Source: Nitrospirota bacterium (GTDB lineage: Bacteria; Nitrospirota; UBA9217). From it: DNA of 64,000 bases. Below the pieces are notes generated by a model. It made no database searches and was not told the origin of the DNA. It worked only from the letters and a program-made list of their open reading frames with translations. Shown piece after piece: positions 46,331-56,780 of the stretch; position 1 is the first letter of the stretch; each line of letters starts with the position of its first letter. The position numbers and the translations under genes are program-made. The DNA is taken from positions 1 through 64,000 of the forward strand of contig JAOUEV010000006.1 in NCBI GenBank assembly GCA_029858565.1, read 5' to 3'.

Positions 46331-47863
46331 ATGCTTGCCAAGGTGATGAGCGCGGCCGTGCTCGGAATCGACGCCTATTCCGTGGAGGTGGAGGTCGATA
46401 TCGCCAGCCGCGGTCTGCCGTTCTTTTCCACGGTCGGCCTGCCCGATGCTGCGGTCAAGGAAAGCAAGGAGCGGGTGCGCGCGGCGCTCAAGAACACGGG
46501 ATTCGACTTCCCCCTGAAGCAGGTGGTGGTCAATCTCGCGCCTGCTGACATCAAGAAAGAAGGGTCTGCCTTTGACCTGCCCATTGCCGTTGCCATGCTG
46601 ATCGGCGAGGGCGTGCTTACCCAGGAAATGGTCGATGGCTACATCATCACCGGCGAGCTTGCCCTGGACGGAAGGGTGAAGTCCGTGCGGGGAGCCTTGT
46701 CCATGGCAGTGCTGGGCAAGCGGTCCAACTGCCGCGGCATGATCCTTCCGCAGGAGAATGCGGCCGAGGCAGCGGTCGTGGACCCGGTCAAGGTCTACGG
46801 TGTGAGAACGCTCCCCGAGGTCGTTGAGTTCCTAGGCGGCAAAGCGGCACTGGAGCACCTGCGGATCGATGTACAGAACGCTTTCGAGACCTTCTCGCTC
46901 TATCAGGAGGATTTCTCCGAGGTGCGCGGACAGGAGCATGCAAAGCGCGCCATCGAGATCGCCGCCGCCGGCGGCCACAACATCATCATGATCGGCCCTC
47001 CGGGGTCAGGCAAGACCATGCTCGCGCGTCGTCTTCCGTCGGTGCTTCCGCGGATGAGCTTTGACGAATCCATCGAGACCACCAAGATCCACAGCATCAT
47101 GGGATTGCTCAAGCAGGGCCAGCCTTTGATCGCAACAAGACCGTTCCGCAGCCCTCATCATACAATTTCCGACGCCGGCCTGATCGGCGGAGGCCAGGTC
47201 CCGAAGCCCGGCGAGGTCAGCCTGTCCCATAATGGGGTGCTTTTCCTGGACGAGTTGCCGGAGTTCAAGCGCAATGTGCTTGAAGCGCTCCGTCAGCCGC
47301 TCGAAGACGGCCAGGTGACCATCTCCCGCGCTTTAACCTCGCTCACCTATCCCGCGTCGCTCATGCTCGTGGCTGCCATGAACCCCTGTAAGTGCCAGGG
47401 CCGGGGCGATCCACAACGGCCTTGCACCTGCACGCCGAACCAGATCAGGCAGTATCAGTCGAAGATCTCCGGTCCGCTCCTGGACAGGATCGATATACAC
47501 GTCGAGGTTCCTGCAGTGAAGTTCAACGAGATATCATCGGATAAAGCAGCTGAACCATCGATTGCGATCAGGGATCGTGTTGTCAAAGCTCGAACAATCC
47601 AGTATGAGCGGTTCATTAATGATGGGATCTATTCCAACGCGCAGATGAAACCGAGACATATCCGTAAATACTGCAAGATCGACGATGACTCGCTGCGGCT
47701 CATGGAAATGGCCATGAACCGGCTGGGACTTTCCGCGCGGGCATACAGCCGCATCCTGAAGGTGTCACGAACGATCGCGGATATCGAGTGCAGCGATAAA
47801 ATAGCTTCCCATCACATCTCAGAAGCGATCCAGTATCGGAGCTTGGATAGAAAAGCGGTCTGA
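46331..47863 (+). CDS. comM: ComM/YifB Mg-chelatase-like AAA+ ATPase, full length, probably chimeric at the NPC codons
   Basis: VGLPDAAVKESKERV, GPPGSGKT, RPFRSPHH, LFLDELPEF, MNPCKC, SGPLLDRID, LSARAY. Confidence 0.95.
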   Translation: MLAKVMSAAVLGIDAYSVEVEVDIASRGLPFFSTVGLPDAAVKESKERVRAALKNTGFDFPLKQVVVNLAPADIKKEGSAFDLPIAVAMLIGEGVLTQEMVDGYIITGELALDGRVKSVRGALSMAVLGKRSNCRGMILPQENAAEAAVVDPVKVYGVRTLPEVVEFLGGKAALEHLRIDVQNAFETFSLYQEDFSEVRGQEHAKRAIEIAAAGGHNIIMIGPPGSGKTMLARRLPSVLPRMSFDESIETTKIHSIMGLLKQGQPLIATRPFRSPHHTISDAGLIGGGQVPKPGEVSLSHNGVLFLDELPEFKRNVLEALRQPLEDGQVTISRALTSLTYPASLMLVAAMNPCKCQGRGDPQRPCTCTPNQIRQYQSKISGPLLDRIDIHVEVPAVKFNEISSDKAAEPSIAIRDRVVKARTIQYERFINDGIYSNAQMKPRHIRKYCKIDDDSLRLMEMAMNRLGLSARAYSRILKVSRTIADIECSDKIASHHISEAIQYRSLDRKAV

Positions 47864-47948
47864 TTTCAAAAGGACTTTTCCAGATTTCTCACACAAGATA
47901 TTTCCGATAAAAAAATAACTGTAATAATAATTTATTTGCACATTTCTG

Positions 47949-47977
47949 TTGACAAGGGATTGCGATTTCACTATAAT
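47949..47977 (+). promoter_or_regulatory. Consensus sigma70 promoter upstream of the RHS gene
   Basis: Exact TTGACA-N17-TATAAT. Confidence 0.85.
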
Positions 47978-48114
47978 CGCAGCCAATTTACCCCTCGTTG
48001 TCGCACTTCACTATAAAAAGTAATTGAGAGTCCTTTCAACGACGCTGTCGATGCAGCATGCACGCATTCGTCGTGATATTGAGACCTATTGTCACTTGAT
48101 CATAGGAGAATGGC

Positions 48115-51100
48115 ATGTTTTTTCTAAACCGTTGGAGCATACTTAAAGCAGTTTTGCATGCAGTGATTTTGACAGTTATGACTGTTAGCACTGTTTTTGC
48201 TGTCGAGTCTGGCCAGACTGCTCCAAAAAAATCATCTGGATTGGGTGGCGAGGGCAGTGGTGGCTCCGGGTCTGTAGTGCCTGATCTCTCAACGGGGTCA
48301 TTTTCCTATTCCATTCCGATTGAAGTGCCTGCCGGTCGTAAAGGCATGAATCCCAATTTATCCCTAATTTATAATAGTACAAACGGCAGGAGCTGGGTCG
48401 GTTACGGATGGGAGTTAGAAAGTGGAGCTATCGAACGGAATAATAAAAGTGGCGTCGATTATAGTAAGGAAGACTATATATTACGCATGGGCGGAGCGAC
48501 GAGTGAGCTTATTAAAATAGAGACCAACGAGCTCGGCCAACCCGTAACAAATGAATTTCGAGTGAAAATTGAAGGGGCCTTTTTCCTCATAAAAAAGGTT
48601 GCCGCAACGAACTCATGGGAGCTCATTGACAAGAAAGGGGTCCACTATTACTTTGGCCAAACAACGCTTTCACGGCTGGATAACCCAGCAAATGCCAATG
48701 AAATATTCAAGTGGTGTCTCGATCGAGTCGAAGATACAAACGGTAATTACATGACGTTATCTTATAATAAAACGTATCTTCAAATTCCCTGGGCTTTGCC
48801 GGACGATGCACAATTATACTTGAAAGAAATCGCGTATGCTGGCAATACAAATACGGGTTTACTACCAACAGTCAATGTCAAGTTCTATACGGAGCTCAAT
48901 TACGACAAGACCGACAGCGGTTCTTCAAACTTTCGGGTACGAACTGCTTATAGACTAAAATCGATCGATATTAGTGCAAACGGGAACCGCGTGCGCGCCT
49001 ATCGTCTCCGGTACGATGTCGATCCGGGCGCAACCGGGAATCAGAATAGTCCTAGTAGCGGACGCTATTTGCTTACGAGCGTGGAACAGTATGGAAGCGA
49101 CGCGGACGTCTCCCCCACCACCGGCGATGTAACCGGAAGTTCTTTGCCCGCCACGACATTTTCTTACCCTCTTAACACGAACGGCTTTTCTGTGCAGGAA
49201 TGGACAGGAATGCCGAATTGGGGTGACGCAGCATATACATGGGTAGGCGATTTCGATGGCGATGGTATGATGGACATTGCAACAGCAACAGCGAACGGTA
49301 CAGCTATTTGGATTAAACACTCTCAAGGCATGACGAGCAGCCAATATTTTGTTGAAGAACAATGGGCATCCGGTTTGAATACCATAGGGCCATCGAATTT
49401 TACCTGGGCAGGCGATTTTGACGGAGATGGAAAGACCGATATTGCAACTATCGTTAACGGTATTGTTCGAGTCAGACTGTCAAGACCCGATAATCCACTT
49501 GGTAGCAGATTTGTAGAACAACCGTGGTCAACCACAATTACTACCTATTACGGTGGAATGACTTGGGCAGGCGATTTTAACGGCGATGGGAAAACCGACA
49601 TAGCATATGGCGTGCCGGGGAGCGGTAGCTGGAATATTTGGGTCCTCGCATCGAACGGCGCTGGGTTCGATTCACCGCAGGTTTGGCAAAGTAATTCGGT
49701 AAATTGGGGCACAACGTTGCTCGGCGACTTTAACGGTGATGGGAAAACCGATATCGCGACGTATGCAGGTGGAACGATTTGGTTAAAAGTCGCGCGGCCG
49801 GATCTGCCTTCGGGGCAGAGATTTCCAGAAACGGCAACAACTAATGTCCCTAGTTGGGGCCAAAGTGTCTGGGTGGGCGACTTCAATGGCGATGGTCGGA
49901 TGGATATTGCGACAGGAACAATAAATGGTTTGTTCGGTGGACCCGGCACGTTATGGGTAAAAATATCCACAGGAAATTATTTCATCGAACAACTATGGTG
50001 GTCCGGAACTTATACACCCTTAATAATTCCTAATTCAGAATGGATAGGCGATTTTAATGGGGATGGGAGAACTGATATAGCCTCATTGTACAGCAATTCT
50101 CAAATCAGTATTAAACAATCAACCGGATTTAGTTTTACTGAACAGTTGTACACGGTAAGCGGTCTTTGGAGCGATGGCGGATATAACTGGGCAGGCGATT
50201 TCAATGGTGACGGCAAGGACGATTTAGCAACCGGATGGTATGGATCGATCTGGATCAGAAAGGCAAATGTTTTTCAAGTGGATCGGCTGACCTCGATCAA
50301 AGATAGTATGGGAAGCACCACTACCATTCAGTACGATTGTTCTACCGATTTTCGCTGGAACAATACATTGATGCCTTTTCCTGTCCAGACAGTCAGCGAG
50401 ATCAGAGTCAACGACGGCAACGGAGTTGAGTCATCAACTTTATATACATACCTTGGTGCCTACTACCACATCGGTGATAGAGATTTTCGGGGTTTCAACC
50501 AAACACAGGTTGTCGGGCCACACGGACCAAACGGAGAAAATGCAACGACAATTACATGGTTTCACCAAGGCAGGGATACAGGTGTTGATGAGAATCATCC
50601 AGAAGTGTCGAATGGTTATATGAAAGGTCGGCCTTATCGAACTAAGGTAGTAGGCAATCATAATAAAACATATTCTGAATCGACAATTACCTATGCTCCC
50701 GACGATTCTGCACCTTACTTTAACCCAGCTTCAGAGGTAATTTCATATATTTGCGATGGCGATGAGTGTGGTCTTGATTCAAAGAAGACTCTCGCATTCG
50801 ATCGATTTGGTAACCTGCAGGAGGAGCGTGTATATGGTTCAGCCAGTGCTCAATCACCGGAGCGAAGGGTCGTACATACTTATGCCGAGAACAGCTCATC
50901 GGATAAGTGGATCGTGAGTCTACCTCTGACTGTGGAGCTTTATGATCAGAACAACGCCCTTATGGCAAAAAAGCGGATCTATTATGATGGGGTGGGAGGT
51001 TGCACGCAGTCTGCCGGTCTTGCGACGCCGGAAAAAGGAAATGTCACGCGTATTGTCAATGAACATATAGATCCTCTTCCGCAACTACAACCCGTTATTG

Positions 51101-54100
51101 GTGATATAGAAATCGGTATGGGCTATTATGCTGACGGAAATACCGCATGCATGCGTGACGCGCGTGGAAGTATAGTCTCAATCGCCGAAACAGATTACGA
51201 CACTTCCCGTACATTCCTGCTAAAAAAGAGAAATGCCCTGGGCCATGAGACAGCCACGAAGTATTACGGAGTTGATCAGGAACCTACAGACAATGGTTTA
51301 TATGGTCAGGTTAAGAGCATTACCGGTCCGAACGGTGCGGCAGAGATAGTAAATTCCCAATATGATAGTTTCGGGCGTCGCATTAGAGTTGACCTGCCTG
51401 ATGGTACCTGGCAGACGTGGCAGTACAACAATATCGGTTCTATCGGGACCCAGCATATTCAAACAACGAATAGCGCGGGATTGAGTGCTTGGACATATTT
51501 TGACGGACTCGGACGGACTTTCCTGCAAAAGCAGGTAGGCCCGGATGGAAAAACTATCGCTCAAAATACAGAATATAACAATACAGGAACGGTGAAACGT
51601 TCATCTTTGCCCTATTATTACGGCTTGGAAAGCGTCCGTTATGTGAACTTTGTTTATGACTCCATAGGACGAGTCATACAAAAAAACAATCCAGACGCCA
51701 CAACGGAATATGCATGCTATGACGATGGTGTTATCACTTCGATCGATGCAGAAGGAAAGAGAAAACGCGAAATTCGCAATGCCTTCGGGCAGTTAATCAA
51801 AGTCGAGGAGTACATTGGAACGGGAACTTCCTGCACGCTCAACGCTTCGGACGTATATGCCACGACAACTTACACCTATGATGCAGCGGGCAATCTTCGT
51901 TTTGTAACAGATGCTGAAAACCACGTAATGGAAATGCGTTATGATTCGCTGGGTCGCAAATTTTATATGAAAGATCCAGACATGGGTGAATGGTACTACA
52001 AGCACGATGAAAATGGAAATCTCAAGCGACAAAAAGACGCGAATCTTGCGGTAATAACGTTCGACTATGATAATATCAACAGGCTATCTCTAAAAACTTA
52101 TCCGGATGCAAAAACGGTCCAGTACGTTTACGACGATCCATCTGCTGCTTATTCAAAAGGCCGTTTGACATCAATGGTCGACGAGTCAGGCGTAACGAGC
52201 TATTCTTATGATATTGTAGGCCGTGTCGTAACTGTGAAAAAACGAATAGACGGGCAGGATTACACTGTAACGACTGGCTATTCGAGTGGTCGCTTGTCTA
52301 GCATATCCTATCCCGATCCACAAGGGACTGACCCATTAACGGTGAATCATTCTTACGACGGCGGTGGAAATCTACACCAGCTATCGAGCAGCGCACAGAC
52401 ATTTCTGACTCTCACTGGATACAATGCCCTGGCTCAGCCTGGAACTGCGACCATGGGTAATGGAGCAGCGACAGTTTATCAATATTACCAGACGAACAAT
52501 CGTCTTCAGAGAATTACGACGACCGGTGCATCTCAGACGCATCTGGATATTACGTATGACTATTATGACGCAGGTAATGTCAAGGAAATCAAGGATCAGC
52601 GCGATAATGCACGCTCGCAATGGTTTATTTACGACGATCTGAACAGGCTAGTCGAGGCGCAGAGTACACTTTATGGCGCTTTATTCTTTAGCTATAACCA
52701 AACTGGCAATATCCTTTCGAAACCAGTAGAACCATTGGCTGGGAATGGTGGGGCTCTCCCGAGCGGCGCAACGCCTACCTGTCCAACCGGCACTGCGCTC
52801 AATGGTGCAACCGGTCGCTGTGAAGCAGTGCCGCAATGCAATTCAGGAACGTATAGCTCTTCCCAAAATATATGTATGTCGGAAAGTTTGAGCGAACCAT
52901 CCTGTCTTGCGGGGAGTCAACTTGATATAACAAGGGATCAGTGCATTGCTGCTGCTACTGTTACTACAACCTATTCTGATCCCAGTTGTCCCACGTATTC
53001 CCGGATGTACAGTCAGTTTCCTAGGGTTGATCCAACAACCGACCAGTGCAGTTATTACTCGACCTCAGGATGTAGCTCAAGCATGTGTACAGGCCAAGGT
53101 TTGACATTTACGGGTTGTAAAATCATACCTGCCATTGGTTACCGTACGACATGTCTTGGGCCAGCGCCATCTTGTTCCGTCGGTACCTATGACGCCTTCC
53201 GTAATGCATGTGCGTTAACCACAATATCTTGCCCGGCAGGACTTGCTTATAACTCATCAACGCAGGATTGTGTTGCAGCACCTGTATGCGCCAGCGGAAC
53301 TTACGATCTTTCCCGGAATAAATGCGTCTCAAGCTCCACCGCTGCTGCAACTTGCCCAGCAGGAACAACGCTGAATGGCATTTCGGATAAATGTGAAGCG
53401 ATGCCGACTTGTTCAGCGGGTTCTTATGACGCGGGTCAGAACACATGCGTTTACAATATCGTGCCTGCTACAACATATACATACGACGGGACTGCACATG
53501 CGCTAACCTCTACGTCAGATGGTCGCGTCTATCAACACGATTCGAATGGGAACATGTGGTCAGATGGTCTGCGAACGATAAACTACAATTACGATAACTT
53601 ACCGATATCAATAACTTATAGTGGTATAACGACTACGCTTGTTTATGACGGAAACGGTGATCGGGTCAAAAAAATTACGCCGTCCGGTACGACAATTTAC
53701 ATAGGAAAACTTGCTGAGTGCATAAACGGCGAGTGCACAAAGTACATTTTTGCGGGAGGGACGCGGATTGCCGCAAAGTTTTACAATGATATCAATTACT
53801 ATCATCAGGACCATCTCGGTAGTACCCGGGTCGTAACTGATGGAAGCGGAAACAGTGCCGAGGGCATCCAATACTATCCTTTCGGTGCCACGCTAAGCGA
53901 CACAGGTAGCAACTTCAATCACAGATACACATCTCAGGAATATGATAGGGAAACCGGGCTATATTATTACAACGCGAGGTACTATAACCCGACGCTGGGA
54001 AGGTTCATTAGTCCGGATTCAATTGTTCCTGATCCGGCCAATCCCCAGGCTTTGAACCGATACAGTTACGTCATCAACAATCCGGTAAACTATACAGATC

Positions 54101-54975
54101 CAAGCGGACATGCGTTCTGGAAGCGAATGAACAATTGGTCGAAAAAACCATGGGTTGCTTTTGCGTTACAGATGATTCCTGGTGCCATTGCTCCTGGAGT
54201 CGCAGAATTCGCCACATATCAACTGACGAAATCAAAGAGAGGTCGGCAAATACTAATCGCAGAAGCTGTCATAGCAACAATTGCGGTGTCTTGTGGGGCT
54301 ACTGCGGAGGCGTCAGCGGCAGGTGCGTCAGAAGGAGGGATGGCAACAGCAGACACTTCGCAAATATTTGAAGTATACCCATACGATTTCATCGCACCAA
54401 ATTCTGCCAATGGTGGTTCAGTCATCAGCGGTACGGGTAGTACTGGTAGCGCTGGTGCGGCATCTTATGGATCTTCGGAAGAAATTGCAAGGCAGTCTCT
54501 TGCCGCGATAAAATATGGCGGCACTGCATATATTTCCTATCAAGGCATCAGTGCCGTGGGTGGAGCAATTGGCACGCCACGCAGTGGAGGGGACCACGGC
54601 GGCTCCAATGGTGGCGGACAAAATGGGTATAAAAGTGGATATTGGGATGTAAATACATCCGGCGGATTTATCATTGGGTATACTCATGGATGGCTATTTA
54701 CTGGAAGTAATCATTATGTCTATTCTGGTGGTGGACTTGTGACGCCGGGATATGGTGGTTCCATTACTTGGTCATCATCTGCTCCAACTCCTGGGTGGAA
54801 TGCAGCACTGCAAGTTCAATTTGGTATTGCTATTCAAGTAGGTTATGGGTTTGGTCCTAGTGGTGGCTGGTTTGGGGAGGTTGGTGGAGGGTGGCCCCCA
54901 GGCGCATCATTGACCGGTTACTTCGTTTTTGAAGGCAGACGCAATAATTTACCAAAATTATTGCCATCACATTAA
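48115..54975 (+). CDS. RHS/YD-repeat polymorphic toxin: signal peptide, SpvB-like N-terminus, 7 FG-GAP/VCBS-type repeats, YD repeats, Cys-rich insertion, RHS core, C-terminal putative toxin
   Basis: TGSFSYSIPIEVPAGRKG, GDFxGDG x7, YDxxGR repeats, HQDHLGS, YNARYYNPTLGRFISPD, NNPVNYTDPSG. Confidence 0.92.
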   Translation: MFFLNRWSILKAVLHAVILTVMTVSTVFAVESGQTAPKKSSGLGGEGSGGSGSVVPDLSTGSFSYSIPIEVPAGRKGMNPNLSLIYNSTNGRSWVGYGWELESGAIERNNKSGVDYSKEDYILRMGGATSELIKIETNELGQPVTNEFRVKIEGAFFLIKKVAATNSWELIDKKGVHYYFGQTTLSRLDNPANANEIFKWCLDRVEDTNGNYMTLSYNKTYLQIPWALPDDAQLYLKEIAYAGNTNTGLLPTVNVKFYTELNYDKTDSGSSNFRVRTAYRLKSIDISANGNRVRAYRLRYDVDPGATGNQNSPSSGRYLLTSVEQYGSDADVSPTTGDVTGSSLPATTFSYPLNTNGFSVQEWTGMPNWGDAAYTWVGDFDGDGMMDIATATANGTAIWIKHSQGMTSSQYFVEEQWASGLNTIGPSNFTWAGDFDGDGKTDIATIVNGIVRVRLSRPDNPLGSRFVEQPWSTTITTYYGGMTWAGDFNGDGKTDIAYGVPGSGSWNIWVLASNGAGFDSPQVWQSNSVNWGTTLLGDFNGDGKTDIATYAGGTIWLKVARPDLPSGQRFPETATTNVPSWGQSVWVGDFNGDGRMDIATGTINGLFGGPGTLWVKISTGNYFIEQLWWSGTYTPLIIPNSEWIGDFNGDGRTDIASLYSNSQISIKQSTGFSFTEQLYTVSGLWSDGGYNWAGDFNGDGKDDLATGWYGSIWIRKANVFQVDRLTSIKDSMGSTTTIQYDCSTDFRWNNTLMPFPVQTVSEIRVNDGNGVESSTLYTYLGAYYHIGDRDFRGFNQTQVVGPHGPNGENATTITWFHQGRDTGVDENHPEVSNGYMKGRPYRTKVVGNHNKTYSESTITYAPDDSAPYFNPASEVISYICDGDECGLDSKKTLAFDRFGNLQEERVYGSASAQSPERRVVHTYAENSSSDKWIVSLPLTVELYDQNNALMAKKRIYYDGVGGCTQSAGLATPEKGNVTRIVNEHIDPLPQLQPVIGDIEIGMGYYADGNTACMRDARGSIVSIAETDYDTSRTFLLKKRNALGHETATKYYGVDQEPTDNGLYGQVKSITGPNGAAEIVNSQYDSFGRRIRVDLPDGTWQTWQYNNIGSIGTQHIQTTNSAGLSAWTYFDGLGRTFLQKQVGPDGKTIAQNTEYNNTGTVKRSSLPYYYGLESVRYVNFVYDSIGRVIQKNNPDATTEYACYDDGVITSIDAEGKRKREIRNAFGQLIKVEEYIGTGTSCTLNASDVYATTTYTYDAAGNLRFVTDAENHVMEMRYDSLGRKFYMKDPDMGEWYYKHDENGNLKRQKDANLAVITFDYDNINRLSLKTYPDAKTVQYVYDDPSAAYSKGRLTSMVDESGVTSYSYDIVGRVVTVKKRIDGQDYTVTTGYSSGRLSSISYPDPQGTDPLTVNHSYDGGGNLHQLSSSAQTFLTLTGYNALAQPGTATMGNGAATVYQYYQTNNRLQRITTTGASQTHLDITYDYYDAGNVKEIKDQRDNARSQWFIYDDLNRLVEAQSTLYGALFFSYNQTGNILSKPVEPLAGNGGALPSGATPTCPTGTALNGATGRCEAVPQCNSGTYSSSQNICMSESLSEPSCLAGSQLDITRDQCIAAATVTTTYSDPSCPTYSRMYSQFPRVDPTTDQCSYYSTSGCSSSMCTGQGLTFTGCKIIPAIGYRTTCLGPAPSCSVGTYDAFRNACALTTISCPAGLAYNSSTQDCVAAPVCASGTYDLSRNKCVSSSTAAATCPAGTTLNGISDKCEAMPTCSAGSYDAGQNTCVYNIVPATTYTYDGTAHALTSTSDGRVYQHDSNGNMWSDGLRTINYNYDNLPISITYSGITTTLVYDGNGDRVKKITPSGTTIYIGKLAECINGECTKYIFAGGTRIAAKFYNDINYYHQDHLGSTRVVTDGSGNSAEGIQYYPFGATLSDTGSNFNHRYTSQEYDRETGLYYYNARYYNPTLGRFISPDSIVPDPANPQALNRYSYVINNPVNYTDPSGHAFWKRMNNWSKKPWVAFALQMIPGAIAPGVAEFATYQLTKSKRGRQILIAEAVIATIAVSCGATAEASAAGASEGGMATADTSQIFEVYPYDFIAPNSANGGSVISGTGSTGSAGAASYGSSEEIARQSLAAIKYGGTAYISYQGISAVGGAIGTPRSGGDHGGSNGGGQNGYKSGYWDVNTSGGFIIGYTHGWLFTGSNHYVYSGGGLVTPGYGGSITWSSSAPTPGWNAALQVQFGIAIQVGYGFGPSGGWFGEVGGGWPPGASLTGYFVFEGRRNNLPKLLPSH

Positions 54976-54999
54976 TAGACTCTATTAAGGCGGATAACA

Positions 55000-55224
55000 A
55001 TGAATGAAATTGCATTTGGAGTCATGGGCTTATTTATAGGGTTTCTCCTAATTTATTTCAATAAGCAATTTGCTCGTTTGCTTGTTGAACAGCAGAATAA
55101 GTTTTGGGGGTTCCATTTTGATCATAGAGAAATAATGATTTCAAGAATTGGCGCGTTTATTGCTGGTGCCGGTTTTGTTATAGCAGGATTATTAATGGTA
55201 TTTAAGATAATACATTTTAAATAA
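55000..55224 (+). CDS. Small 2-TM membrane protein, candidate cognate immunity protein
   Basis: Starts 24 nt after the RHS stop, AT-rich, two hydrophobic helices. Confidence 0.6.
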   Translation: MNEIAFGVMGLFIGFLLIYFNKQFARLLVEQQNKFWGFHFDHREIMISRIGAFIAGAGFVIAGLLMVFKIIHFK

Positions 55225-55235
55225 ATAGGGTCAAT

Positions 55236-55260
55236 TGAACTGACCCCCTCCGTTTAGACA
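55236..55260 (+). mobile_element. Possible solitary IS3-family-like terminal inverted repeat
   Basis: TGAACTGACCCCCTCCGTTTAGACA, followed by an orphan AAGGAGG and no transposase. Confidence 0.35.
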
Positions 55261-55352
55261 ATAACACAAAGCGAGTTATTGAAGGAGGCTCTCAAGCTAA
55301 TGAATTCGTAGTGCCCCGTGCTCCACAGGCTGGTTCCAACTAGCGATGAAAA

Positions 55353-55721
55353 ATGAAACCACCATTATTCGTGATTGAAGGTTTTGATATTAGTGCTTAT
55401 GCTTCGCTTGAAAAGCTTGAGAACCACCTGGAGCCATTCTTTGTGAAGGAAGTAAATTATAAGGCATATGATTCTGAAGGAAGACTCTTGACTCTATCAG
55501 TGAAGGTCGAGCGCAAGCCATTTTTTTTTGGATTGTTTAAGGCAGAACGAAAGTGTGTTGTCATGCAGTCGGTTGAGTTAGAACCCAAATATCAAAAAGA
55601 TCTACATGATGCGCTTGTAAATAATTTAGCCTATACAACTGAAGAGAATAAATCAACGTACCAAGAAATGTCACTAAGTAAATTGATCGATATATTTGTG
55701 AAAATTAATGGCTTAACTTGA
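55353..55721 (+). CDS. Hypothetical protein, candidate orphan immunity protein
   Basis: AT-rich 122-aa ORF downstream of the RHS locus; YKAYDSEGRLL. Confidence 0.6.
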   Translation: MKPPLFVIEGFDISAYASLEKLENHLEPFFVKEVNYKAYDSEGRLLTLSVKVERKPFFFGLFKAERKCVVMQSVELEPKYQKDLHDALVNNLAYTTEENKSTYQEMSLSKLIDIFVKINGLT

Positions 55722-55842
55722 AATCGGGAGTTTAACAGTAGCTGACTGAATCATCTAAACATGCCTACTGAACCAAGGTTAACGTTAACCCAATAATTTG
55801 ATATTTGAGTACTTGATCAGAATTGTAAATTCGCGCATGAAC

Positions 55843-56298
55843 TCAATAAATATTTTTCAAATTATGCTGTAGAAATTGATTGATGCTTCGAATGTTCCGC
55901 TTGCACGGCCGCATGCCACGGCTTATCCAATCCAGCAGCTGCTCCGGATCCCGCCCCATAACAGCCCCCAGCCGCTCAAAGGATAGCCCGTTTACCATCT
56001 TAAAGTACCTGAGCCTGCCGAGGGTGTCTTCCGGGCAGGGGAATGGGACATATCCCAGAAATCGTATGATAGCCGGCATATGTCGGATCTCAGGTTCTGT
56101 ACCCCGTTCCCAGTTATAGACCGAGGCTTCGGATACCCCTATTTGCTCGGCAGCCTGTCTTTGGAATAATCCTAAATCTATTCGTCGCTTACGGAGATGC
56201 TCGCCAATGGATTTCGGGTTGCTCGGGTAGCCGGGTCGTGCTACAATCGGCCGTGGTAAAGAATAACTATAAACCGGCCACTCTAAAAAGCTGAACAA
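55843..56298 (-). CDS. XRE-family protein with two HTH-like units; start uncertain
   Basis: IGEHLRKRRIDLGLFQRQAAEQIGVSEASVYNWERG; second unit LGRLRYFKMVNGLSFERLG. Confidence 0.8.
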   Translation of the reverse strand: MFSFLEWPVYSYSLPRPIVARPGYPSNPKSIGEHLRKRRIDLGLFQRQAAEQIGVSEASVYNWERGTEPEIRHMPAIIRFLGYVPFPCPEDTLGRLRYFKMVNGLSFERLGAVMGRDPEQLLDWISRGMRPCKRNIRSINQFLQHNLKNIY

Positions 56299-56780
56299 AC
56301 CCCTGCAAGTGCGGTTTTCACAGCGATCCCCTGCATCAGTGTCTCTGCACGCCCCACCAGGTCCAGACCTACCGGTCCCGCGTATCCGGCCCTCTCATGG
56401 ACCGGATCGATATTCATATCGAGGTGCCGGCGGTCAAGTTCCGCGAGATCGCAGATGATACTCCGACTGAACCGTCTGTTCATATCCGTGAACGTGTGAC
56501 CCAGGCAAGAGAGATCCAGCAGGAGCGTTTCCGGAGTGACGGCATCTACGCCAACGCGCAGATGAAGCCGCGGCACCTCAGGAAGTATTGCAAGATCGGC
56601 GAAGATTCCCAGCGACTTATGGAAGCTGCAATGAGCAAAATGGGCCTCTCCGCCCGCGCGTACAACCGCATCCTCAAAGTCAGCCGCACCATCGCGGACC
56701 TGGACGCCAGCGAGAGTATTGCTACTCATCATATTTCTGAGGCGATTCAGTATCGGAGTTTGGATAGAAGAACGGTCTGA
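56298..56780 (+). pseudogene. comM: Second comM 3' half beginning at NPCKC
   Basis: NPCKCGFHSDP..SGPLMDRIDIH..LSARAYNRILKVSRTIAD..EAIQYRSLDR; in-frame TGA at 56292, no 5' portion. Confidence 0.9.

Follow-up and report, generated by a model that had tools for sequence, protein, structure and literature searches.

A toxin island without a catalytic recombinase between an intact comM gene and a second comM 3' end in a Nitrospirota genome

The 64,000-nt stretch of DNA analyzed in this study (the window, C88:1-64000) belongs to a Nitrospirota genome of 3.9 Mb (144 contigs, 100% complete) and contains an island of 8.9 kb (47381-56297) located between the head of an intact comM gene and a second copy of the comM 3' end. 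The comM gene (46331-47863, plus strand) is a single open frame of 510 codons, and its product is a full-length ComM/YifB-type AAA+ ATPase with the ChlI, Mg_chelatase and Mg_chelatase_C domains, scoring 640 bits on the YifB model TIGR00368 (cut-off 362). All four cysteines of the NPCKC..CxC cluster are retained, according to the alignment, in its last third (tail1, codons 351-510). The second copy (tail2) begins abruptly at the same NPC codon, comprises the same 160 codons without a stop, and is identical to tail1 in 110 of 160 residues (69%) and in 68-73% of the DNA. The copies are 8917 nt apart; the 15-mer AACCCCTGYAAGTGC occurs in the whole genome at 47381 and 56298 only, and no third comM piece was detected there. 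The original prediction, made from the window sequence, had reported an intact comM, a diverged second tail starting at the same NPC codon, and AT-richer DNA between the tails, and all three observations held. In particular, the GC content is 0.62 in the comM head versus 0.53 in tail1, 0.51 in the XRE-like gene fragment at the distal end of the island, 0.47 in its Rhs toxin gene and 0.32-0.38 in its small open reading frames (ORFs) and spacers; tail2 has 0.57 and the next gene 0.58, with 0.35 in the spacer that separates them. At third codon positions, GC content (GC3) is 0.79 in the head vs. 0.68 in tail2.

The tail copies are as predicted, but the repeat was drawn too short: the homology does not end at the stop codon and continues for about 63 nt, to approximately 47926 and 56843, with weaker similarity up to about +100 nt. 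The last ~25 coding and ~35 post-stop nucleotides are about 92% identical by alignment count, the remainder about 68%. This near-identical 3' end (motif TGATTTYAAAAGGACTTTTC) was found at just these two places among all fetched loci and the genome. The ratio of nonsynonymous to synonymous substitution rates is approximately 0.04-0.15 for both tails (0.04-0.12 for tail1 versus its nearest tails), with synonymous divergence saturated.

The island ends in a minus-strand ORF with a helix-turn-helix (HTH) domain of the XRE type, whose first codon touches the second copy of the comM core and in which neither an ATG nor a GTG start lies close to the 5' end. Residues 3-151 of this ORF align with residues 497-643 of P0004 (56% identity), a 643-aa entry of the public protein collection that combines the Resolvase, Recombinase, Zn_ribbon_recom and HTH_3 domains; P0003 (502 aa) is another fused form. 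By sequence comparison, the 'XRE' ORF is the C-terminal module of a large serine recombinase (LSR) gene, not a plain XRE regulator, and we refer to it below as the stub. Since the island ends in a 3' fragment of an LSR gene, it is a derivative of LSR elements. In the set of 64 genomes of the order, stub homologues are present in six, including the window genome; they are close (66-76% identity) in G049, G063 and G066 and decayed in G060. In these four genomes the stub homologue directly abuts a displaced comM tail that begins at the same codon, in agreement with the predicted insertion at the NPC codon.

A full element of this family is represented in G063. Its comM head, on a different contig from the stub, ends with ATG|AACCCCTG| and is immediately followed by a minus-strand LSR ORF of 507 aa (Resolvase, Recombinase and Zn_ribbon_recom in Pfam), beyond which lie genes for a CI-like repressor, phage replication protein O and a VRR-NUC nuclease. 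Up to the last base of the shared ACCCCTG, the LSR frame is 1485 nt long, a multiple of three, and the homologous stub ORF starts at the next base at the other end of the element. This continuity of the frame and the fused forms P0004 and P0003 indicate that attP lies inside the LSR gene and that integration splits the gene. Similarly, in four Geobacterales genomes (G080, G082, G083 and G084) an LSR 53-56% identical to that of G063 abuts the comM head at residue ~350, so that an LSR stands directly at the head end in all five truncated heads examined. The two core copies differ at nt 9 in the window and at nt 3 in G049, from which we infer that the LSR crosses over within nt 4-8. The island had been likened to tRNA-targeting elements, in which attP of the autonomous element carries the 3' end of the target gene; this picture does not apply, as the full elements here have attP inside the LSR gene and break comM. 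The parallel drawn with AbaR islands concerns a different mechanism and is beside the point.

The claim that the island contains no recombinase or integrase holds for the catalytic part, and has to be corrected for the stub. No PF00239 match was found in the 100%-complete genome, nor any tblastn match to the G063 LSR, and the ten matches to the tyrosine recombinase family PF00589 are all outside the window contig. Because no LSR catalytic domain was found in the genome, the unit is immobile by itself.

Public genome and metagenome contigs were scanned with an alignment of four stub proteins, yielding 103 loci (L086-L134 and L144-L197) with flanks of up to 10 kb. Duplicates and overlaps are kept in all counts below (for example, L086 = L144 = G049, L087 = G063, L152 = G066). 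Of the stub copies, 86 include the N-terminal part; 55 of these directly adjoin a comM tail from residue 3 or earlier, four are at contig edges, and 27 have no adjoining tail. Other Nitrospirota and Geobacterales have the same junction of stub and tail; most of the public matches belong to Geobacterales/Desulfuromonadales (about 50% identity), and the conservation of stub ORFs across the two phyla is 50-76%. Full-length displaced tails are stop-free in 39 of 40 cases, which reflects either recent displacement or the upkeep of headless tails through gene conversion or selection. Intact comM and a stub occur together at one locus in at least seven cases besides the window (G049, G066, L088, L155, L167, L188 and L191); the head match in L167 covers residues 216-350 only, and in L088 and L188 the stub lacks a neighbouring tail. 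Tail-cargo-stub units stacked without an intervening LSR were observed in G083:C17 (three units, 15-16 kb apart), L089 and L108, and the tails inside one stack differ by about 15% in DNA. No LSR adjoining a stub was detected in the 103 loci at E ≤ 1e-5 or 1e-6, a result that with flanks of at most 10 kb does not establish absence. In G060, the comM head ends exactly after M350 without a restoring tail, and is decaying beside an LSR-less island.

Two Geobacteraceae metagenome-assembled genomes (MAGs) share a stub with its cargo at 99.8-100% identity in different contexts (L101, 14322-20414; L119, 9928-14673). The stub abuts a full comM tail in L119, and in L101 it abuts about 34 nt of tail followed by the cargo of another unit. 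At the sequence level this is evidence of recent movement and, for L101, also of tail truncation within stacks.

Several loci depart from the common arrangement. The tail-less stubs of L158, L162, L170, L098, L115, L116 and L120 are preceded in frame by 14-25 codons that end in ..K(F/S)RG, then a stop; this ending resembles the end of the LSR catalytic part, and these loci look like remnants of attP-type junctions between stacked elements. In L184 (3003-4494) the comM head and the stub are on the same strand, 60 nt apart, in the reverse of the relative orientation at all other loci, which may be due to an inversion between sites. In L034 (G021:C179, 6240-7944) an intact comM is followed by a 65-aa ORF and a 73-codon tail fragment (residues 436-508), and about 0.6 kb further by a gene pair that by eye resembles HigB/HigA and nearly matches the complete cargo of the minimal L155 unit; G021 yielded no recombinase stub, and the locus looks like a further-decayed unit. 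A 42-codon tail fragment with one TAG lies about 830 nt 3' of an intact comM in L035 (G016:C355, 1928-2053), a decayed displaced tail with another break point. The comM matches in L030 (G014:C1, 347673-349197) form two overlapping pieces, residues 1-122 and 120-508, suggesting a frameshift. The candidate displaced tail in G011:C376 was rejected because it belongs to a second comM-like gene (55% identity), cut off by the contig end. Finally, no comM tail match was found in 13 of the 64 genomes of the order, including the near-complete G059 (100%) and G065 (99%), and comM may be missing altogether from part of the family.

The cargo of the island (Table 1) is dominated by a gene with the architecture of Rhs/YD polymorphic toxins, with the Rhs-associated core (TIGR03696) at residues 1920-1999 and a C-terminal part of 287 aa that matched no family. 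A promoter-like sequence, TTGACA..TATAAA, similar to that upstream of the toxin gene was seen by eye after the restoring tail of L155. The non-tail DNA of the island has zero matches in the other fetched loci, and the Rhs protein has only distant ones, in G049 and L107. At L107 (4308-6269), from a Geobacteraceae MAG, an Rhs-type gene (42% identity across the Rhs core) comes after a displaced comM tail and lies on its strand; the order of tail then Rhs is found in the window, G049 and L107. Other units carry different cargo: a teneurin-type YD-shell toxin in G049, a PRTase-domain protein and DUF5131 in G066, and a pair resembling HigB/HigA by eye in the 0.8-kb unit of L155. In the G063 element, a D12 methylase, FRG and two GmrSD proteins are encoded beside the stub. 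The upstream neighbours of comM (an NlpC/P60 gene and others) are syntenic across the family.

Table 1. Positions of the features at the comM locus in the window
Feature	Position	Strand	Remarks
comM head, codons 1-350	46331..47380	+	host part, ending in the B arm of the attachment site; 82-87% aa identical to relatives in the family
Proximal core AACCCCTGTAAGTGC	47381..47395	+	7 nt ACCCCTG (47382-47388) are the common part of attL and attR in the full LSR element of G063
tail1, comM codons 351-510	47381..47863	+	in-frame fusion to the host head; Mg_chelatase_C match
Post-stop stretch homologous to that after tail2	47864..47926	+	weaker similarity on to ~47960
Sigma-70-type promoter consensus TTGACA-17-TATAAT	47949..47977	+	12/12, by pattern match alone; upstream of the toxin gene
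Rhs / fused TcB-TcC-like polymorphic toxin, 2286 aa	48115..54975	+	SpvB, FG-GAP, TcdB_toxin_midN, RHS_repeat
74-aa hydrophobic ORF, putative immunity protein	55000..55224	+	assigned by position; no family; GC 0.32
122-aa ORF, possible second immunity protein or orphan module	55353..55721	+	no family
'XRE' ORF, 151 codons, detached C-terminal HTH module of an LSR	55843..56298	-	HTH_3; 5' end adjoining the distal core and carrying the P arm of the attachment site
tail2, displaced comM codons 351-510, most likely native	56298..56780	+	open, headless; 80% aa identity to same-genus tails

An assembly chimera, or a second tail that is the relic of an ancient comM duplication, would explain the locus without any mobile element. 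The assembly is in 144 contigs, and the sole public run with the window DNA, kept as contigs, may be its own source. In that run both junctions are bridged: a unitig matching 47236-47712 without differences joins the head to tail1, and unitigs from 47790 span the island through tail2 and further at a depth of 11.3, equal to that of the flank after tail2. Moreover, the same architecture is present in independent assemblies of other genera and of another phylum, and the break is at the same codon everywhere; we find an artefact or a duplication relic hardly credible. The run contigs also contain a minor variant of the 47683-47819 part of tail1 (eight differences, depth 3.9 vs. 14.1), suggesting a second strain or allele in the sample. 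An out-of-register joint 47389->56665 (one contig, depth 4.5, side 29) is under the trust limits; it was rejected as an excision product and taken as comM from another organism. Two further checks that had been proposed yielded nothing usable. No in-register deletion or circle joint was found in the single contig-only run, where such an absence carries no weight, and no empty-site allele could be defined, the DNA 3' of comM being different in all examined relatives, G001 and G003 of the same genus among them.

The two tails differ in their relationships. Amino acid identity to the same-genus genomes is 84% for the head and 80% for tail2, as opposed to 67-73% for tail1. The head-tail1 gene matches the family at an identity of 0.82 over nt 901-1020 and of 0.67 over nt 1021-1140, falling abruptly at nt ~1051, whereas a composite of the head and tail2 stays at 0.81 across the same stretch. 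In the maximum likelihood tree of 58 tails, tail2 groups with G001 and G003 (support 85/93, not starred), and tail1 is on a long branch (0.37) inside a starred clade (97/99) of the genera g17/g19; partial fragments, the G045 and G070 tails with stops or frameshifts, G002:C303 and G011:C376 were left out of this tree. To judge from these comparisons, tail1 looks foreign and tail2 is most likely native. In G049, the sequence downstream of the distal tail resembles by eye the stretch after comM of G016, i.e., a native context. The two tails of G049 are identical over nt 4-446 (443 nt), with five synonymous changes in the last 30 nt, a pattern that suggests gene conversion between them; the same process may account for the near-identical 3' ends of tail1 and tail2 in the window. 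An island-borne 3' end is fused in frame to the head and the putative native one is displaced to the far end, a polarity that is supported, not proven.

We propose that the island is a recombinase-less tail-cargo-stub unit left at the fixed comM site of one LSR family, having arrived with, and been left behind by, a helper LSR element; our confidence in this origin is about even. The observations underneath it are the identity of the stub, the common insertion point, the recurring architecture, the intact composite comM and the lack of an LSR catalytic domain in the genome. As the attachment site of the family lies in the recombinase gene, integration leaves the catalytic part beside the comM head and the HTH module of ~145 aa beside the displaced tail; the window has only the stub, the adjoining cargo (the Rhs toxin and small ORFs) and, replacing the recombinase end, a foreign tail that restores comM. 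Serine integrases pair attP with attB and attL with attR. A unit would arise once or rarely, by duplication or illegitimate joining near an integrated element, and would be carried in a composite after attL of a helper recombines with the stub/tail junction of the unit. The composite of helper and unit would then integrate whole at the comM core ACCCCTG of the lineage. Excision of the helper alone by an ordinary attL x attR reaction, with the stub/tail1 junction serving as attR, would yield the observed order head-tail1-cargo-stub-tail2, and the unit would be immobile unless a new helper enters the restored comM. The unit stacks in relatives suggest repeated helper integration.

Several points weigh against this origin. 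Site-specific recombination re-joins segments at the cores only and therefore cannot create a tail-to-stub segment, so the first unit needs another event, such as duplication, illegitimate joining or repair. No contiguous example of a helper LSR element followed directly by a tail-bearing unit on one contig was found among the loci, and the two halves of the G063 element are on separate contigs. The proximal tails form no element-specific clade, those of G049 and G066 being host-like; with the identity of the G049 tails, this requires gene conversion or else favors local repair. The near-identical 3' end and post-stop stretch unique to the window require an extra in-situ conversion. Regarding polarity, the approximately unbiased (AU) test does not reject, at the 0.05 level, the grouping of tail1 with G001 and G003 (p 0.054) or with tail2 (p 0.058), and the DNA tree of 53 heads, which base composition distorts, does not resolve their branching and provides no test of head-versus-tail incongruence. 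Of the separate trees suggested by the original prediction, that of the tails was thus informative (tail2 with its genus, tail1 elsewhere) and that of the heads was not. Its central proposal, that about 160 island-borne codons rebuilt comM with a swapped C-terminus, stands as far as tail1 is in frame and foreign-looking, with own-genus placement not rejected.

The same tests bear on the reverse polarity, in which tail1 is the lineage's own tail, fast-evolved or swapped earlier, and one homologous crossover, within the near-identical 3' end and post-stop stretch, brought in the segment cargo-stub-core-tail2. The sole long near-identical stretch between the repeats is there, where RecA would cross over; the AU tests are indecisive, and GC3 of tail2 (0.68) is also under that of the head (0.79). 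However, the tails of the same genus group with tail2 and those of other genera with tail1, it is the distal tail in G049 that has the native downstream context, and an abrupt change of similarity exactly at the recombinase core is unexpected for a native gene. We consider the reverse polarity very improbable.

The scattered, often host-like proximal tails (G049 falls in g10, G066 in g17) can also be read as repair in situ. A full LSR element would have broken comM, and an incoming intact allele from another strain would have recombined in the head and joined illegitimately inside the element, as in homology-facilitated illegitimate recombination. Such an event would delete the recombinase end and restore comM, and each restored locus would be independent, not a travelling unit. 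The G049 tails identical over 443 nt fit this scheme, as do the variable post-stop DNA that came with the tail (~63-100 nt in the window vs. none in G049) and the unrepaired LSR-less island with a decaying comM head in G060. The cost of ComM loss for transformation in tested species (PMC12378983) also speaks for repair. On the other hand, in the window, G049, G066 and L155 the first cargo gene follows the tail at a short distance and no truncated gene is seen, unlike what random deletion endpoints would leave; the foreign stretch begins at or very near the core although 1 kb of head was available for recombination (the resolution being limited by head conservation); and tails of one stack ~15% apart, all of them open, would call for many separate repairs from distant donors. 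Repair in situ seems unlikely to us on balance.

The open, diverged tails of the stacks lead to a more radical possibility, a true cassette: a tail-cargo-stub circle with an attR-type site (stub-core-tail) joined by a helper LSR in trans to attB of an intact comM, to which we give a low probability. This would amount to an integron-like system based on comM, a similarly doubtful prospect, in which each insertion rebuilds both comM and its attB landing site, so that stacking is unlimited. If it is true, toxin and defence cassettes could be stacked serially, and any stub could complete the recombinase gene of a helper on excision. Besides the 39 of 40 stop-free displaced tails, the compactness of the units speaks for it, with a promoter-like site just after the tail (in the window, and in L155 before the two-gene HigB/HigA-like pair), as do the conservation of the stub ORFs in two phyla and the commonness of the restored state. 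However, serine integrases are not known to carry out an attR-type x attB reaction. Further, neither a circle junction nor an empty site appeared in the single contig-only run, the viral contigs gave only three weak matches (32-34% identity) among 23 candidates with no free or circular units, and the genome has no LSR that could act in trans. As the acquisition route of the restoring tail we prefer hitch-hiking with a helper to repair by foreign DNA and to a true cassette reaction, at the about even confidence given above.

According to Durrant et al. (2022, PMC10083194), the Mg-chelatase/comM (YifB) family is targeted by 12.4% of the predicted site-specific LSRs, and disruption of comM by mobile elements is documented in PMC12378983 and PMC4774983. 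The gene is a favourite target of serine recombinases, and the usual account of such insertions is silencing and blunted transformation; this locus and at least seven others have ended up in the opposite condition. There, a comM that looks functional is retained, with an apparently foreign last third, together with the weaponry of the element (Rhs here; restriction, toxin-antitoxin-like and other cargo elsewhere), and the recombinase is gone. Such a state offers a concrete route by which comM may act as a renewable landing pad, with toxin and defence islands accumulating behind it. Exchange of the last third of ComM between genera, if it occurs, matters for comM phylogeny, and 'XRE regulator' annotations next to comM pieces need care, as they may be LSR stubs. 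The locus may also be a natural test bed for the control of direction in a recombinase that cuts its own gene on integration.

A word search of open-access text found comM disruption and its targeting by LSRs, but neither recombinase-less units that restore comM nor an LSR gene divided by its own attP. Like the LSR elements in comM, represented by G063 and the four Geobacterales, the island has the same target gene, the same fixed site, a short core at both ends and accessory toxin/defence cargo, and it ends in a piece of an LSR gene. Unlike them, it encodes no LSR but the C-terminal HTH module, comM is whole, and a foreign-looking tail of 160 codons occupies the place of the recombinase end. 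The cargo resembles Rhs/YD polymorphic toxins and fused TcB-TcC shells in its SpvB, FG-GAP, TcdB mid-N, RHS-repeat and Rhs-core content, its variable C-terminus and the small ORFs downstream; the 287-aa C-terminus without a family match sets it apart from the known members.

In the integration-dependent immunity of mycobacteriophages, attP is located within the repressor gene and integration truncates the protein. The LSR family is similar in that attP inside an element gene lets integration alter the protein made, but here it is the recombinase gene that is cut, and an HTH module that is detached. The prophages e14 and phage 21 in icd, as well as tRNA and tmRNA islands, encode their own integrase and carry a copy of the gene 3' end as part of attP. 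As in these elements, the 3' end brought by the island is fused to the host 5' part and the presumed native 3' end is left as a pseudo-copy. They differ in that the island has no integrase of its own with an attP containing the gene 3' end, attP of its autonomous relatives is within the LSR gene, and the tail is carried only by recombinase-less derivatives.

The nearest formal parallels are cis-mobilizable elements (CIMEs) with their accretion (PMC5704250) and the tandem ssrA islands of Dehalococcoides (PMC3146451). They share with the island the absence of a recombinase (no LSR catalytic domain was found in the island or the genome), flanking repeats of the target-gene 3' end, tandem stacks downstream and a likely ride with a helper. 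A CIME keeps both attL and attR, whereas the left junction of the island is a complete target gene (attB-type), without a left element arm, and only the right end is attR-type (stub-core-tail); the CIME repeat is about 20 bp versus at least 480 nt of coding repeat here, and full elements of the LSR family to which the island is related do not restore the gene. The island and its relatives differ from the known systems in three features together: comM is left broken by the full elements, a complete gene takes the place of attL at the left junction, and the gene that integration cuts is that of the recombinase.

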